Positions 39,816 to 48,542 of a stretch of DNA of 64,000 nt are shown in pieces. The position numbers and the translations under genes are program-made. The stretch covers positions 2,356,001 to 2,420,000 of the forward strand of contig JBNRSN020000094.1 of assembly GCA_051313645.2 (NCBI GenBank), read 5' to 3'. The notes below the pieces were generated by a model, which saw only the letters and a list, made by a program, of their open reading frames with translations, searched no databases and had not been told where the DNA came from. Every line of letters begins with the position of its first letter. Position 1 is the first letter of the stretch. The stretch is from Centroscyllium fabricii (taxonomy: Eukaryota).

Positions 39816-40455
39816 TTTGCATTCTTATTTCCAGCAAAGCTAAAAAAAACAGCTGTTGCTGCCCACAATCACATCGCGCTTCATTTTGTCACTCTGGACA
39901 CATTACTGACACCAACTTCCTGGTTGAAATACACAACAGGGCAAATGATGAATTTTGCCCTGTCCCTGGGACTAGGGACAGGGCCACTTGCAAGGCTTGG
40001 AATCTAAGCAGAGCCAGGCCTGGTTAGTACTTGGAGGGGTGACCACCAGGCAATACTAGGTGCAGAAGGTCACGAAAGGAGCCCCGGGGAGGGGCGGTTG
40101 GCTGAAGATTGTCGGAATGATGGAAAGATGGAATAGCGGCGTGCACAGATGCAGCGGCTTTGCTGGACTCTTGGGAGCTTGCAACATCACATTTCGTTGT
40201 TCATGTACTTGTACATTGTATAATGACAATAAAGTTGAATTATTATTATTATTATTATGGGTTGTTCCAACACACGTCTATTTATTAGTGTTGCCCTGTG
40301 AACACGTCGCTTCATCTGATCCAGTGGGTTGCATCAGAAGCGAGTTTGCCCTCCCTCCCCACCCCCCCGAATTATAAGTACCTTGCAAAAGACAGAGCAA
40401 GCCACATTTACATCAGCAGCTAGCAATTAAAGAACGGAAGATAGGGCCATCATGT

Positions 40456-40537
40456 GGTAGCGTGGCCGAGCGGTCTAAAGCGCTGGATTAAGGCTCCAGT
40501 CTCTTCGGGGGCGTGGGTTCGAATCCCACCGCTGCCA
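40456..40537 (+). tRNA. trnal-aag: tRNA-Leu(AAG), D-stem G>A variant
   Basis: TCTAAAGCGCTGG. Confidence 0.9.
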
Positions 40538-41431
40538 CGTATTTTTGCGGCATTCATACATTTCATTTCGCCGTTTCACCAACAGCAGTAAACCACCGTG
40601 CAGGCAGTTTTGCTCAGTATTTTATCACTTCTTCACCATTTCCTTCAGTTGTTATTGACAGGCAGATAGGATTTGCAGAATTTCCTCTGCTTCGGGTAAT
40701 TGGCATGAACCCAGCACCGAGGACGACAAACACCGCCACCCAAGCAACTCAATTCACACCGTTCACTCACTCGTCTCCACACTGGCTGCGTCTCAAGTCA
40801 AATATGTTGACATTTTTGGTTGTTGCATTTTTTGCAATCTAGCGACCAGGCTCGAACCTTTGCACAAGACGGAACACCGTTACACAACAGGAAGATGCTT
40901 ACACAACAGTGAACAACTTTACATGGCAGGGAACATCTTTAAACAGCGGGGAATCCATTTACACCGCCGAAAGCACCAAGGTGCAAGTCTCTGTCTTGCT
41001 CTCAGTCTCCATTGCCCTGTTTGCCTTTCTCTCTCTCTCGCTCTGTTTCTCTCGCAGTCTCCTTCTTTCCCGCAGTCTGTCCCTCGTGTTATTCGGGCTT
41101 AGTGTGTGTGTCTCTCTCTGTCTGGTTTCCTCAGTGTCTTTCTCTGTTCCTCCCGTGTTGTGTCCTGCAATACGCTTGCTGTTTTTCGGTGTCTCATCAT
41201 TGTGTGTCTCTCCCATGGTGTGTTAGGTGTAATACTGAGTGTCTTTGTGACATTGTGCAGCCATGTGAGCCTGCCAAGCCGGCTGATGTGGTGTCCGGGT
41301 CTCGGGGCTGTTTGAAGGTCGTGCTGTTGCTTTCAACACAGCCTGGATGCTGACAATTGTCTCGCTGACACCCAGCACTGTGACGCATCGCAAGCTAAAC
41401 AGCAGCCGGGATGTGTTGGCAATCGACAGAC

Positions 41432-41503
41432 AGCAGAGTGGCGCAGCGGAAGCGTGCTGGGCCCATAACCCAGAGGTCGATGGATCGAAACCATCCTCTG
41501 CTA
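41432..41503 (+). tRNA. trnam-cau: tRNA-iMet(CAT)
   Basis: Consensus initiator tRNA sequence. Confidence 0.97.
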
Positions 41504-42143
41504 TTTGCATTCTTATTTCCAGCAAAGCTAAAAAAAACAGCTGTTGCTGCCCACAATCACATCGCGCTTCATTTTGTCACTCTGGACACATTACTGACAC
41601 CAACTTCCTGGTTGAAATACACAACAGGGCAAATGATGAATTTTGCCCTGTCCCTGGGACTAGGGACAGGGCCACTTGCAAGGCTTGGAATCTAAGCAGA
41701 GCCAGGCCTGATTAGTACTTGGAGGGGTGACCACCAGGCAATACTAGGTGCAGAAGGTCACGAAAGGAGCCCCGGGGAGGGGCGGTTGGCTGAAGATTGT
41801 CGGAATGATGGAAAGATGGAATAGCGGCGTGCACAGATGCAGCGGCTTTGCTGGACTCTTGGGAGCTTGCAAGATCACATTTCGTTGTTCATGTACTTGT
41901 ACATTGTATAATGACAATAAAGTTGAATTATTATTATTATTATTATGGGTTGTTCCAACACACGTCTATTTATTAGTGTTGCCCTGTGAACACGTCGCTT
42001 CATCTGATCCAGTGGGTTGCATCAGAAGCGAGTTTGCCCTCCCTCCCCACCCCCCCGAATTATAAGTACCTTGCAAAAGACAGAGCAAGCCACATTTACA
42101 TCAGCAGCTAGCAATTAAAGAACGGAAGATAGGGCCATCATGT

Positions 42144-42225
42144 GGTAGCGTGGCCGAGCGGTCTAAGGCGCTGGATTAAGGCTCCAGTCTCTTCGGGGGC
42201 GTGGGTTCGAATCCCACCGCTGCCA
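42144..42225 (+). tRNA. trnal-aag: tRNA-Leu(AAG)
   Basis: Consensus Leu-AAG sequence. Confidence 0.97.
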
Positions 42226-43121
42226 CGTATTATTGCTGCATTCATACATTTCATTTCGCCGTTTCGCCAACAGCAGTAAACCACCGTGCAGGCAGTTTTG
42301 CTCAGTATTTTATCACTTCTTCACCATTTCCTTCAGTTGTTATTGACAGGCAGATAGGATTTGCAGAATTTCCTCTGCTTCGGGTAATTGGCATGAACCC
42401 AGCACCGAGGACGACAAACACCGCCACCCAAGCAACTCAATTCACACCGTTCACTCACTCGTCTCCACACTGGCTGCGTCTCAAGTCAGATATGTTGACA
42501 TTTTTGGTTGTTGCATTTTTTGCAATCTAGCGACCAGGCTCGAACCTTTGCACAAGACGGAACACCGTTACACAACAGGAAGATGCTTACACAACAGTGA
42601 ACAACTTTACATGGCAGGGAACATCTTTAAACAGCGGGGAATCCCTTTACACCGCCGAAAGCACCAAGGTGCAAGTCTCTGTCTTGCTCTCAGTCTCCAT
42701 TGCCCTGTTTCCCTTTCTCTCTCTCTCGCTCTCTGTTTCTCTCGCAGTCTCCTTCTTTCCCGCAGTCTCTCCCTCGTGTTATTCGGGCTTAGTGTGTGTG
42801 TCTCTCTCTGTCTGGTTTCCTCAGTGTCTTTCTCTGTTCCTCCCGTGTTGTGTCCTGCAATACGCTTGCTGTTTTTCGGTGTCTCATCATTGTGTGTCTC
42901 TCCCATGGTGTGTTAGGTGTAATACTGAGTGTCTTTGTGACATTGTGCAGCCATGTGAGCCTGCCAAGCCGGCTGATGTGGTGTCCGGGTCTCGGGGCTG
43001 TTTGAATGTCGTGCTGTTGCTTTCAACACAGCCTGGATGCTGACAATTGTCTCGCTGACACCCAGCACTGTGACGCATCGCAAGCTAAACAGCAGCCGGG
43101 ATGTGTTGGCAATCGACAGAC

Positions 43122-43193
43122 AGCAGAGTGGCGCAGCGGAAGCGTGCTGGGCCCATAACCCAGAGGTCGATGGATCGAAACCATCCTCTGCTA
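43122..43193 (+). tRNA. trnam-cau: tRNA-iMet(CAT)
   Basis: Consensus initiator tRNA sequence. Confidence 0.97.
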
Positions 43194-43833
43194 TTTGCAT
43201 TCTTATTTCCAGCAAAGCTAAAAAAAACAGCTGTTGCTGCCCACAATCACATCGCGCTTCATTTTGTCACTCTGGACACATTACTGACACCAACTTCCTG
43301 GTTGAAATACACAACAGGGCAAATGATGAATTTTGCCCTGTCCCTGGGACTAGGGACAGGGCCACTTGCAAGGCTTGGAATCTAAGCAGAGCCAGGCCTG
43401 GTTAGTACTTGGAGGGGTGACCACCAGGCAATACTAGGTGCAGAAGGTCACGAAAGGAGCCCCGGGGAGGGGCGGTTGGCTGAAGATTGTCGGAATGATG
43501 GAAAGATGGAATAGCGGCGTGCACAGATGCAGCGGCTTTGCTGGACTCTTGGGAGCTTGCAAGATCACATTTCGTTGTTCATGTACTTGTACATTGTATA
43601 ATGACAATAAAGTTGAATTATTATTATTATTATTATGGGTTGTTCCAACACACGTCTATTTATTAGTGTTGCCCTGTGAACACGTCGCTTCATCTGATCC
43701 AGTGGGTTGCATCAGAAGCGAGTTTGCCCTCCCTCCCCACCCCCCCGAATTATAAGTACCTTGCAAAAGACAGAGCAAGCCACATTTACATCAGCAGCTA
43801 GCAATTAAAGAACGGAAGATAGGGCCATCATGT

Positions 43834-43915
43834 GGTAGCGTGGCCGAGCAGTCTAAAGCGCTGGATTAAGGCTCCAGTCTCTTCGGGGGCGTGGGTTCGA
43901 ATCCCACCGCTGCCA
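43834..43915 (+). tRNA. trnal-aag: tRNA-Leu(AAG), G18A (A box) and D-stem G>A; insertion immediately downstream; possibly a pseudogene
   Basis: TGGCCGAGCAGTCTAAAGCG. Confidence 0.78.
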
Positions 43916-43926
43916 CGTATTATTGC
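43915..43926. repeat. Target-site duplication, left copy (ACGTATTATTGC)
   Basis: Repeated at 44266-44277; single copy in the uninterrupted units. Confidence 0.92.
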
Positions 43927-44016
43927 CATAATGTGGAGGTGCCGGTGTTGGACTGGGGTGGACAAATGCAAAAAGTCACACAACACCAGGTTTATAGTCC
44001 AACGTTTTATTTTAAA

Positions 44017-44054
44017 TCACAAGCTTTCGGAGCGTCGCTCCTTCGTCAAGGTGA
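44017..44054 (-). ncRNA. Minimal type I hammerhead-ribozyme-like motif (minus-strand copy)
   Basis: Reverse complement reads TCAC-CTTGACGA-A-GGAGC-GAC-GCTCC-GAAA-GCTT-GTGA. Confidence 0.62.
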
Positions 44055-44187
44055 ACAGAGAGAGACTGAACTTAAACATCACACATCAGGGGAGGGGAGA
44101 AATCCGATCTCTTACATGTGAGATGTGTAAGAGATCGGATTTCTCCCCTCCCCTGATGTGTGATATTTAAGTTCAGTCTCTCTCTGT

Positions 44188-44225
44188 TCACCTTGACGAA
44201 GGAGCGACGCTCCGAAAGCTTGTGA
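44188..44225 (+). ncRNA. Minimal type I hammerhead-ribozyme-like motif (plus-strand copy)
   Basis: Helix I TCAC/GTGA; core C(T)TGACGA; helix II GGAGC/GCTCC; GAAA; palindromic AAGCTT in place of helix III; one extra T in the core. Confidence 0.62.
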
Positions 44226-44265
44226 TTTAAAATAAAACGTTGGACTATAAACCTGGTGTTGTGTG

Positions 44266-44277
44266 ACGTATTATTGC
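44266..44277. repeat. Target-site duplication, right copy
   Basis: ACGTATTATTGC; first 2 nt overlap the end of the inverted repeat. Confidence 0.92.
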
Positions 44278-45162
44278 GGCATTCATACATTTCATTTCGC
44301 CGTTTCACCAACAGCAGTAAACCACCGTGCAGGCAGTTTTGCTCAGTATTTTATCACTTCTTCACCATTTCCTTCAGTTGTTATTGACAGGCAGATAGGA
44401 TTTGCAGAATTTCCTCTGCTTCGGGTAATTGGCATGAACCCAGCACCGAGGACGACAAACACCGCCACCCAAGCAACTCAATTCACACCGTTCACTCACT
44501 CGTCTCCACACTGGCTGCGTCTCAAGTCAAATATGTTGACATTTTTGGTTGTTGCATTTTTTGCAATCTAGCGACCAGGCTCGAACCTTTGCACAAGACG
44601 GAACACCGTTACACAACAGGAAGATGCTTACACAACAGTGAACAACTTTACATGGCAGGGAACATCTTTACACAGCGGGGAATCCCTTTACACCGCCGAA
44701 AGCACCAAGGTGCAAGTCTCTGTCTTGCTCTCAGTCTCCATTGCCCTGTTTGCCTTTCTCTCTCTCTCGCTCTCTGTTTCTCTCGCAGTCTCCTTCTTTC
44801 CCGCAGTCTGTCCCTCGTGTTATTCGGGCTTAGTGTGTGTGTCTCTCTCTGTCTGGTTTCCTCAGTGTCTTTCTCTGTTCCTCCCGTGTTGTGTCCTGCA
44901 ATACGCTTGCTGTTTTTCGGTGTCTCATCATTGTGTGTCTCTCCCATGGTGTGTTAGGTGTAATACTGAGTGTCTTTGTGACATTGTGCAGCCATGTGAG
45001 CCTGCCAAGCCGGCTGATGTGGTGTCCGGGTCTCGGGGCTGTTTGAAGGTCGTGCTGTTGCTTTCAACACAGCCTGGATGCTGACAATTGTCTCGCTGAC
45101 ACCCAGCACTGTGACGCATCGCAAGCTAAACAACAGCCGGGATGTGTTGGCAATCGACAGAC

Positions 45163-45234
45163 AGCAGAGTGGCGCAGCGGAAGCGTGCTGGGCCCATAAC
45201 CCAGAGGTCGATGGATCGAAACCATCCTCTGCTA
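45163..45234 (+). tRNA. trnam-cau: tRNA-iMet(CAT)
   Basis: Consensus initiator tRNA sequence. Confidence 0.97.
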
Positions 45235-45874
45235 TTTGCATTCTTATTTCCAGCAAAGCTAAAAAAAACAGCTGTTGCTGCCCACAATCACATCGCGCTT
45301 CATTTTGTCACTCTGGACACATTACTGACACCAACTTCCTGGTTGAAATACACAACAGGGCAAATGATGAATTTTGCCCTGTCCCTGGGACTAGGGACAG
45401 GGCCACTTGCAAGGCTTGGAATCTAAGCAGAGCCAGGCCTGGTTAGTACTTGGAGGGGTGACCACCAGGCAATACTAGGTGCAGAAGGTCAGGAAAGGAG
45501 CCCCGGGGAGGGGCGGTTGGCTGAAGATTGTCGGAATGATGGAAAGATGGAATAGCGGCGTGCACAGATGCAGCGGCTTTGCTGGACTCTTGGGAGCTTG
45601 CAAGATCACATTTCGTTGTTCATGTACTTGTACATTGTATAATGACAATAAAGTTGAATTATTATTATTATTATTATGGGTTGTTCCAACACACGTCTAT
45701 TTATTAGTGTTGCCCTGTGAACACGTCGCTTCATCTGATCCAGTGGGTTGCATCAGAAGCGAGTTTGCCCTCCCTCCCCACCCCCCCGAATTATAAGTAC
45801 CTTGCAAAAGACAGAGCAAGCCACATTTACATCAGCAGCTAGCAATTAAAGAACGGAAGATGGGGCCATCATGT

Positions 45875-45956
45875 GGTAGCGTGGCCGAGCGGTCTAAGGC
45901 GCTGGATTAAGGCTCCAGTCTCTTCGGGGGCGTGGGTTCGAATCCCACCGCTGCCA
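45875..45956 (+). tRNA. trnal-aag: tRNA-Leu(AAG)
   Basis: Consensus Leu-AAG sequence. Confidence 0.97.
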
Positions 45957-46852
45957 CGTATTATTGCGGCATTCATACATTTCATTTCGCCGTTTCACCA
46001 ACAGCAGTAAACCACCGTGCAGGCAGTTTTGCTCAGTATTTTATCACTTCTTCACCATTTCCTTCAGTTGTTATTGACAGGCAGATAGGATTTGCAGAAT
46101 TTCCTCTGCTTCGGGTAATTGGCATGAACCCAGCACCGAGGACGACAAACACCGCCACCCAAGCAACTCAATTCACACCGTTCACTCACTCGTCTCCACA
46201 CTGGCTGCGTCTCAAGTCAGATATGTTGACATTTTTGGTTGTTGCATTTTTTGCAATCTAGCGACCAGGCTCGAACCTTTGCACAAGACGGAACACCGTT
46301 ACACAACAGGAAGATGCTTACACAACAGTGAACAACTTTACATGGCAGGGAACATCTTTAAACAGCAGGGAATCCCTTTACACCGCCGAAAGCACCAAGG
46401 TGCAAGTCTCTGTCTTGCTCTCAGTCTCCATTGCCCTGTTTGCCTTTCTCTCTCTCTCGCTCTCTGTTTCTCTCGCAGTCTCCTTCTTTCCCGCAGTCTC
46501 TCCCTCGTGTTATTCGGGCTTAGTGTGTGTGTCTCTCTCTGTCTGGTTTCCTCAGTGTCTTTCTCTGTTCCTCCCGTGTTGGGTCCTGCAATACGCTTGC
46601 TGTTTTTCGGTGTCTCATCATTGTGTGTCTCTCCCATGGTGTGTTAGGTGTAATACTGAGTGTCTTTGTGACATTGTGCAGCCATGTGAGCCTGCCAAGC
46701 CGGCTGATGTGGTGTCCGGGTCTCGGGGCTGTTTGAAGGTCGTGCTGTTGCTTTCAACACAGCCTGGATGCTGACAATTGTCTCGCTGACACCCAGCACT
46801 GTGACGCATCGCAAGCTAAACAGCAGCCGGGATGTGTCGGCAATCGACAGAC

Positions 46853-46924
46853 AGTAGAGTGGCGCAGCGGAAGCGTGCTGGGCCCATAACCCAGAGGTCG
46901 ATGGATCGAAACCATCCTCTGCTA
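46853..46924 (+). tRNA. trnam-cau: tRNA-iMet(CAT), C3T variant
   Basis: AGTAGAGTGG; U3-G70 wobble. Confidence 0.92.
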
Positions 46925-47564
46925 TTTGCATTTTTATTTCCAGCAAAGCTAAAAAAAACAGCTGTTGCTGCCCACAATCACATCGCGCTTCATTTTGTCA
47001 CTCTGGACACATTACTGACACCAACTTCCTGGTTGAAATACACAACAGGGCAAATGATGAATTTTGCCCTGTCCCTGGGACTAGGGACAGGGCCACTTGC
47101 AAGGCTTGGAATCTAAGCAGAGCCAGGCCTGGTTAGTACTTGGAGGGGTGACCACCAGGCAATACTAGGTGCAGAAGGTCACGAAAGGAGCCCCGGGGAG
47201 GGGCGGTTGGCTGAAGATTGTCGGAATGATGGAAAGATGGAATAGCGGCGTGCACAGATGCAGCGGCTTTGCTGGACTCTTGGGAGCTTGCAAGATCACA
47301 TTTCGTTGTTCATGTACTTGTACATTGTATAATGACAATAAAGTTGAATTATTATTATTATTATTATGGGTTGTTCCAACACACGTCTATTTATTAGTGT
47401 TGCCCTGTGAACACGTCGCTTCATCTGATCCAGTGGGTTGCATCAGAAGCGAGTTTGCCCTCCCTCCCCACCCCCCCGAATTATAAGTACCTTGCAAAAG
47501 ACAGAGCAAGCCACATTTACATCAGCAGCTAGCAATTAAAGAACGGAAGATAGGGCCATCATGT

Positions 47565-47646
47565 GGTAGCGTGGCCGAGCGGTCTAAGGCGCTGGATTAA
47601 GGCTCCAGTCTCTTCAGGGGCGTGGGTTCGAATCCCACCGCTGCCA
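47565..47646 (+). tRNA. trnal-aag: tRNA-Leu(AAG), variable-arm G>A
   Basis: CTCTTCAGGGGC. Confidence 0.93.
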
Positions 47647-48542
47647 CGTATTATTGCGGCATTCATACATTTCATTTCGCCGTTTCACCAACAGCAGTAA
47701 ACCACCGTGCAGGCAGTTTTGCTCAGTATTTTATCACTTCTTCACCATTTCCTTCAGTTGTTATTGACAGGCCGATAGGATTTGCAGAATTTCCTCTGCT
47801 TCGGGTAATTGGCATGAACCCAGCACCGAGGACGACAAACACCGCCACCCAAGCAACTCAATTCACACCGTTCACTCACTCGTCTCCACACTGGCTGCGT
47901 CTCAAGTCAGATATGTTGACATTTTTGGTTGTTGCATTTTTTGCAATCTAGCGACCAGGCTCGAACCTTTGCACAAGACGGAACACCGTTACACAACAGG
48001 AAGATGCTTACACAACAGTGAACAACTTTACATGGCAGGGAACATCTTTAAACAGCGGGGAATCCCTTTACACCGCCGAAAGCACCAAGGTGCAAGTCTC
48101 TGTCTTGCTCTCAGTCTCCATTGCCCTGTTTGCCTTTCTCTCTCTCTCGCTCTCTGTTTCTCTCGCAGTCTCCTTCTTTCCCGCAGTCTCTCCCTCGTGT
48201 TATTCGGGCTTAGTGTGTGTGTCTCTCTCTGTCTGGTTTCCTCAGTGTCTTTCTCTGTTCCTCCCGTGTTGTGTCCTGCAATACGCTTGCTGTTTTTCGG
48301 TGTCTCATCATTGTGTGTCTCTCCCATGGTGTGTTAGGTGTAATACTGAGTGTCTTTGTGACATTGTGCAGCCATGTGAGCCTGCCAAGCCGGCTGATGT
48401 GGTGTCCGGGTCTCGGGGCTGTTTGAAGGTCGTGCTGTTGCTTTCAACACAGCCTGGATGCTGACAATTGTCTCGCTGACACCCAGCACTGTGACGCATC
48501 GCAAGCTAAACAGCAGCCGGGATGTGTTGGCAATCGACAGAC

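Follow-up and report, generated by a model that had tools for sequence, protein, structure and literature searches.

A Penelope-like Element Stub with Extra-U Hammerhead-like Motifs in a tRNA Gene Array of Centroscyllium fabricii

The Locus and the Insertion

The window, as the whole stretch of DNA analyzed is called here, comprises 64,000 nucleotides of contig JBNRSN020000094.1 of Centroscyllium fabricii (assembly GCA_051313645.2, 7.2 Gb; positions 2,356,001 to 2,420,000, forward strand). All of it (1-64000) is a tandem array of units of about 1,690 bp, which contain tRNA-Met(CAT), a 5S-like sequence and tRNA-Leu(AAG). The 5S-like sequence, which includes a 28-nt near-palindrome, scores 24-31 bits and lies below the gathering score of 38. 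One unit measures 2041 nt instead of 1690 nt (+351 bp), and it carries at 43927-44267 a 341-bp insertion with a 10-bp target duplication and one tRNA-Leu of the array immediately upstream. The insertion begins 12 bases past the tRNA-Leu end, and the duplicated GTATTATTGC is found on both sides. The features of the locus are as follows.

43834..43915, plus strand: tRNA-Leu(AAG) of the unit that hosts the insertion
43917..43926, plus strand: left target-site duplication, GTATTATTGC; a 2-nt microhomology at each junction gives a range of 8-12 bp
43927..44116, minus strand: long arm, a 5'-truncated 3' end (pLTR) of a Penelope-like element with an extra tail, reaching the ATG of the ORF
44005..44013, plus strand: first T-run past the tRNA-Leu, TTTTATTTT, overlapping the minus-strand AATAAA
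44017..44054, minus strand: minimal type I hammerhead-like motif with an extra U, predicted cut between 44021 and 44020
44117..44118, no strand: 2-nt junction of the two truncated 5' ends
44119..44267, plus strand: short arm, an inverted 5'-truncated copy without the tail
44188..44225, plus strand: minimal type I hammerhead-like motif with an extra U, predicted cut after 44221
44231..44236, plus strand: AATAAA after the motif, kept in 13/13 subfamily alignments, a candidate poly(A) signal
44268..44277, plus strand: right target-site duplication, GTATTATTGC

An inverted repeat of 147 nt within the insertion, absent from an earlier sequence-only reading of this DNA, corresponds to the two arms, each with one motif, and it forms a transposon insertion. 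Each arm is the 5'-truncated 3' end of a young Penelope-like element (PLE). When compared with a full element found elsewhere in the assembly (L115), the long arm is identical at 192/192 positions (100%, 2 nt of microhomology included) and the short arm at 148/149 (99.3%), the single difference being a private G>A at 44165. The short (plus) arm ends 46 nt past the predicted cut site and the long (minus) arm 94 nt past it, 48 nt apart. An identical insertion (394/395 bases, same junctions) is present in two further array units outside the window (L029, 2323-2717 and 7746-8140); the element therefore entered once and was then likely spread by copying of the array. The stub in the window is likely inert.

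The tRNA-Leu at 43834-43915 has a D-arm unlike that of the neighboring copies and a lower score (50.4 vs 57.3 bits), and it may be a decaying copy. The T-run at 44005, judged by its sequence, is likely a Pol III stop, at which read-through from the tRNA-Leu would end before either motif.

The Hammerhead-like Motifs

The plus-strand motif is composed of TCAC (44188-44191), CTTGACGA (44192-44199), A (44200), GGAGC (44201-44205), GAC, GCTCC (44209-44213), GAAA (44214-44217), GCTT (44218-44221), and GTGA (44222-44225). Helix I is formed by TCAC/GTGA, helix II by GGAGC/GCTCC, and the palindrome is AAGCTT. When reverse-complemented, 44017-44054 reads exactly as 44188-44225, and AATAAA follows each motif. 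Core positions are given in the usual hammerhead numbering, and in a double hammerhead strands are exchanged between the two halves. The core reads CUUGACGA, with one extra U at 44193/44194, and CTGANGA was not found on either strand of the insertion. The sequence-only reading had placed the two motifs at these positions with their AATAAA, had called them PLE minimal type I hammerheads with a palindromic helix-III stub, and had noted an extra U in both copies. Every coordinate checks, the extra U is borne out for both copies, and the cut after 44221 stands as a prediction. The assignment of type holds for the described properties of sequence, fold and position except CUGANGA.

In the description of PLE minimal type I hammerheads (PMC4209133), CUGANGA stands straight after the 5' strand of helix I, whereas CUUGACGA occupies this place here. 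The other sequence, fold and position properties in that description agree: GAAANNUH in which 15.2-16.2 are palindromic, without a helix III in the monomer (GAAAGCTT at 44214-44221), helices I and II of 3-7 bp (4 and 5 bp), an unpaired base after A9 with a G10.1-C11.1 pair (A44200 and G44201-C44213, in the MFE fold), and a motif in both pLTRs of the element (in L115, two same-strand copies 3,359 nt apart). The MFE fold of the 43-nt motif consists of helix I and helix II with an energy that is ordinary in comparison with shuffles (z -0.92), and in a 60-nt motif the two helices are dominant (P 0.92 and 0.99).

A relaxed hammerhead pattern gave one match per strand in the 64-kb window, and Rfam returned no hammerhead match for 40000-48000 at E<=5. 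Two miRNA-family matches in Rfam, below the gathering score, were attributed to the hairpin and set aside. Exact 57-nt window-type copies number 548 genome-wide vs 0 for a reversed control, and the motif is therefore not a product of chance.

The Parent Element and Its Mode of Insertion

Loci around other copies of the motif contain long ORFs with an RVT_1 domain. In the complete element L115, an inverted truncated copy is followed by an intact 890-aa ORF between two pLTRs, and same-strand extra-U motifs lie one on each side of the ORF. Its protein contains an RVT_1 domain (E 7e-10) with ADKG and YIDD, thus a PLE-type RT in a single ORF as in EN+ PLEs. The CX2-5CxxC linker between RT and EN, known from the Neptune clade and also from Nematis, is present as CHSNLCKTC (CX4CxxC) at residue 752, and GIY-YIG-like motifs (VYLIRC..YIGET) lie at residues 790-808; the C-terminal 137 aa gave no Pfam or NCBIfam match. 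Partial tandems, an inverted 5'-truncated copy and a one-sided tail, all typical of EN+ PLEs, are found as well. Judged by its sequence features, the parent is consistent with an EN+ PLE of the Neptune or the Nematis type (PMC8557442).

The ATG of the ORF lies 91 nt past the predicted cut site (L115 2742; L025), and the long 3' ends stop at or around it. The 3' UTR, from the stop codon to the motif, has lengthened: older subfamilies have about 250-380 nt, the window's subfamily about 580 nt, with short internal repeats (L104, L049, L052, L021).

Among the first 100 exact copies listed, 54 form 27 head-to-head -/+ pairs with spacings of 78-4783 nt, and one pair is a direct tandem. The 3' ends of 61 distinct copies of the window's subfamily fall mainly 50-59 nt (25/61) or 90-99 nt (23/61) past the cut site. 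Complex insertions of EN+ PLEs with an inverted 5'-truncated copy and a one-sided tail of 30-40 bp have been described (PMC8557442, PMC11167929), and minimal PLE hammerheads have been reported in opposite-strand pairs 100-700 bp apart, as has an additional opposite-strand copy at the 5' end (PMC4209133, Fig S4A legend). Hammerheads on both strands are thus an already known, ordinary by-product of PLE insertion. The arrangement seen here is the commonest insertion product of the element, and its spacing is arbitrary.

Distribution and History of the Extra U

The sequence-only reading had regarded restriction of the extra U to this copy, as in a dead mutant, together with absence of cleavage in any construct, as grounds for abandoning its proposal. 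The extra U is not so restricted: exact pattern counts genome-wide are 4,585 for the extra-U core vs 16,886 for the canonical core (C at N7), with 449 exact copies of the sister type I. When any three bases were allowed after CAC, 4,824 matches were obtained, and CTT was found in 98 of the 100 listed. By hand-made rules, 212 of 263 distinct copies were sorted into 13 subfamilies and 51 stayed unassigned. The extra U occurs in six of these subfamilies and in the motifs on both sides of the intact ORF.

Divergence from the subfamily majority is 0-1% in the extra-U subfamilies B, C, and D and 3-5% in the old canonical subfamily; the 0% of the window's subfamily is biased, as its copies were sampled by identity to the window. 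Young subfamilies with a canonical core also exist. At loci picked by ORF similarity, their ORF ends are 98-99.6% identical to that of L115, and young canonical sisters are present in 998 and 1,855 exact copies. Since canonical and extra-U sisters were both amplified recently, both core states are compatible with recent amplification.

Trees were built from 36 rows with at most five per subfamily, the old family and the unassigned copies being excluded. In the ORF tree a single extra-U clade is rejected (p-AU 0.005) and at least two state changes are required; the 3' UTR tree requires three. One gain with two losses, two gains with one loss, and recombination all fit. Early trees had pointed to one long stem on which the extra U arose once, but the young canonical sisters and the one-clade test ruled this out. 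A canonical-core subfamily (L225, L227, L253) has exactly the downstream tail of the window's subfamily, which suggests recombination between pLTRs.

One contig in each of the runs X17 and X18 (depth 3.5 and 7.9) appears to cover the core with no gap at the U, a coverage too thin to establish the variant in other species. In RNA runs the maximal share of query words was 0.09, and the RNA contigs stop short of the 5' core.

Sequence Constraint and the Cut Site

In a hand tally, which omits the two-copy group X2, all 7/7 substitutions between subfamily majorities within the motif fall at N7, in loop II, at G.U wobbles of helices I and II, or at the last pair of helix I (rough p 7e-5), and in the strict core the U is the sole change. 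By this tally, structural selection acts on the motif across the family. The substrate half, GAAAGCTTGTGA, is identical in 13/13 subfamily majorities. In the extra-U clade (C,(B,(A,I))), no change was counted by eye in 35 non-loop motif positions vs six in the 48 nt downstream (Fisher p 0.037), which suggests that the motif is still constrained there; protein binding or a promoter role of the DNA could also account for its retention.

RNA cut at the predicted site would yield copies whose first bases are GTGA. For copies with the window-type tail, which also belongs to a canonical subfamily, apparent starts at -2, -1, 0, +1, and +2 number 61, 38, 63, 43, and 44, i.e., 63 at the cut vs a mean of 46.5, and 27/30 inspected position-0 loci are true boundaries. 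The subfamily I loci are 21/30 extra-U, 0 canonical and 9 truncated; starts at -1, 0, and +2 number 6, 12, and 11, with 694 copies crossing the site. The share at the cut, 1.7%, equals the background of about 12 lost per base (p 0.23). The old canonical-type tail gave about 563 vs 335 true boundaries by automatic call (17/30 and 7/30 loci), and several in both proved on inspection to be indels. The excess, partly explained by GTGA/TCAC microhomology (e.g., L235), would thus be weak at most in all sets and does not separate the cores; the footprint was dropped as a discriminator between them, the ratios of 1.3-1.7 being alike in all sets. In subfamily I about 2% of copies begin at the cut, no more than at neighboring positions, which indicates that nearly all integrated copies were made from RNA that had not been cut there.

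In numerous short inverted stubs the turn lies at the predicted cut or no more than 2 nt away (TCAC, 2-7 nt, GTGA; L238, L239, L243, L248, L289, L292, L241, L286, L294). They could come from cut RNA or from fold-back on the helix I microhomology.

Interpretation of the Locus

The explanation that we favor, with restrained confidence, is that the locus is a 341-bp stub of a young PLE in which a subfamily-wide extra U likely weakens self-cleavage without blocking retrotransposition, the canonical core returning or persisting in sister lineages. The protein of the element would have nicked the DNA behind a tRNA-Leu; uncut RNA would then have been copied onto opposite strands, with starts some 50 and 90 nt beyond the cut site and an early stop in both copies, and recombination in the array would later have duplicated the unit with its insertion. 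In a full tandem element, the two same-strand motifs 3,359 nt apart could pair via AGCU into a double hammerhead, where cleavage would likely be slowed by the extra U, which sits at the helix I/C3/U4 junction. Lineages would tolerate this because integration uses uncut RNA. Catalytic mutants of the anole PLE hammerhead left insertion in vitro unaffected (PMC11167929), Naiad PLEs proliferate without canonical hammerheads (PMC8557442), and the minimal PLE hammerheads show weak cleavage, as dimers (PMC4209133). A natural 2-nt insertion beside C3, different from the extra U here, made cleavage 425-fold slower in 4 M LiCl (PMC3088659). Two points besides the constraint on the motif speak against this explanation: the window's subfamily is extra-U and seems to be the youngest, although its copies were chosen by identity to the window, and the window-type tail, common with a canonical subfamily, shows the mild excess of starts at the cut. 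Stabilization by the U of an inhibitory CCUU/AAGG hairpin was rejected as a cause (P 0.00-0.21 for extra-U and 0.00-0.03 for canonical motifs; window's subfamily, 0.00-0.02).

The main evidence against an impaired ribozyme is the 0/35 vs 6/48 contrast in the extra-U clade, and it belongs to a tentative alternative that we rate clearly lower: the extra-U core would be a working natural variant, whose protein-assisted dimer cleaves about like the canonical one. The extra base could be bulged at the helix I/C3 junction, or the C could be bulged with U3 pairing to G8. Such a variant would agree with the structure-compatible nature of all seven motif substitutions, with the U in both pLTRs of an element whose 890-aa ORF is intact, and with the dominance of helices I and II in the predicted fold; a bulge could be buffered by protein, on which the anole PLE hammerhead depends (PMC11167929). 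However, canonical branches supply most of the selection signal, the canonical state appears again within the young clade, subfamily I has no significant cut-site footprint, and a natural hammerhead examined in the laboratory was impaired by insertions near C3 (PMC3088659). It is also conceivable, though doubtful, that an amplifying vertebrate-type PLE lineage carries a one-base insertion in the strict CUGA core, missed by standard descriptors, and retains protein-assisted dimer cleavage. Cleavage in trans, in which extra-U RNAs are poor enzymes and good substrates cut by canonical sister transcripts, seems improbable. It is conceivable because in a double hammerhead the core of one strand cuts the other strand, and it would suit the invariant GAAAGCTTGTGA in the 13 subfamily majorities, the co-amplification of canonical and extra-U subfamilies with near-identical ORF ends, and the predicted dimeric state of the PLE protein (PMC11167929). 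Yet it leaves the retention of helix II unexplained, and the predicted double hammerhead barely beats two monomers (-20.7 vs -20.2 kcal/mol) while a non-catalytic dimer is lower (-30.9); by this folding model it would be only marginally stable without protein.

The sequence-only reading had proposed that one ribozyme is present in the transcript whichever strand is read, and that the other arm can mask it, which would amount to a two-way switch. Its structural half stands: there is one motif per polarity, the arms are predicted to pair as a near-perfect hairpin (-293 kcal/mol), and the insertion recurs in two more array units. A functional masked ribozyme is nevertheless very improbable, as the arrangement is that of an ordinary inverted PLE insertion with arbitrary spacing, the plus-strand T-run lies before the motifs, and one arm has a private mutation. 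Each strand has a single minimal motif, for which no cleavage of the monomer was seen in the work described in PMC4209133; by analogy, monomer cleavage would not be expected here.

Significance and Comparison with Known Systems

Processing, a protein-assisted switch, and a passenger state are candidate roles of PLE hammerheads. Thousands of recent retrotransposition events have carried along a core insertion that would be expected to impair catalysis, and the near-identical canonical and extra-U sisters in one genome constitute a natural matched pair for studies of PLE hammerhead function, which could reveal either a new tolerated core or PLE amplification with a crippled ribozyme. Surveys based on CUGANGA undercount PLE hammerheads.

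Precedents exist for the element type, for the minimal motif, and for the inverted pair; the CUUGA core lies outside the published descriptor. A literature search for CUUGA or core-insertion PLE hammerheads found no description, although the study of small PLE hammerhead variants by Lunse et al. 2017, or supplementary file 1 of PMC4209133, may bear on it. The available portions of PMC6765202, PMC6155905, PMC7229834, and bioRxiv 10.64898/2026.07.22.740005 do not mention this core, and in supplementary file 2 of PMC4209133 the single CUUGA match lies within a helix II; the core variant given in that paper is U3-A8.

The motifs resemble the PLE minimal hammerheads of PMC4209133 in being type I with a 4-bp helix I, an unpaired base after A9 and G10.1-C11.1, in GAAANNUH with palindromic 15.2/16.2, and in their position in the pLTR. 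They differ in the core CUUGACGA, which the descriptor of that paper (CUGANGA straight after helix I) would miss. Non-LTR retrozymes are characterized by head-to-tail hammerhead units (PMC7229834; bioRxiv 10.64898/2026.07.22.740005), whereas the window has one inverted motif pair and its tandem repeat is the tRNA unit.

As in complex insertions of EN+ PLEs (PMC8557442, PMC11167929), truncated copies stand head to head with a tail on one arm in an AT-rich target, and the two classes of 3' ends match two RT start sites of the anole PLE (PMC11167929). The two arms in the window differ in their tails by 48 nt, a difference that amounts to about 40 nt family-wide, unlike the 30-40 bp tail of EN+ PLEs, and the ORF starts 91 nt past the cut site instead of in helix II as in the anole element (PMC11167929). 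A single ORF contains an RT, the CHSNLCKTC linker and, toward the C-terminus, GIY-YIG-like motifs, a putative likeness by linker and motifs to Neptune- or Nematis-type PLEs (PMC8557442); Pfam gave no GIY-YIG match.

A parallel to the extra U is offered by the saltern HHmeta and HHphage hammerheads with 2a/2b insertions (Perreault 2011, PMC3088659), in which a natural insertion likewise sits at the helix I/C3 corner. The one that was assayed has a 2-nt insertion, comes from saltern DNA, and needs very high Mg2+, whereas here the insertion is a single U, found thousands of times in the minimal, dimer-type motif of an animal retroelement.
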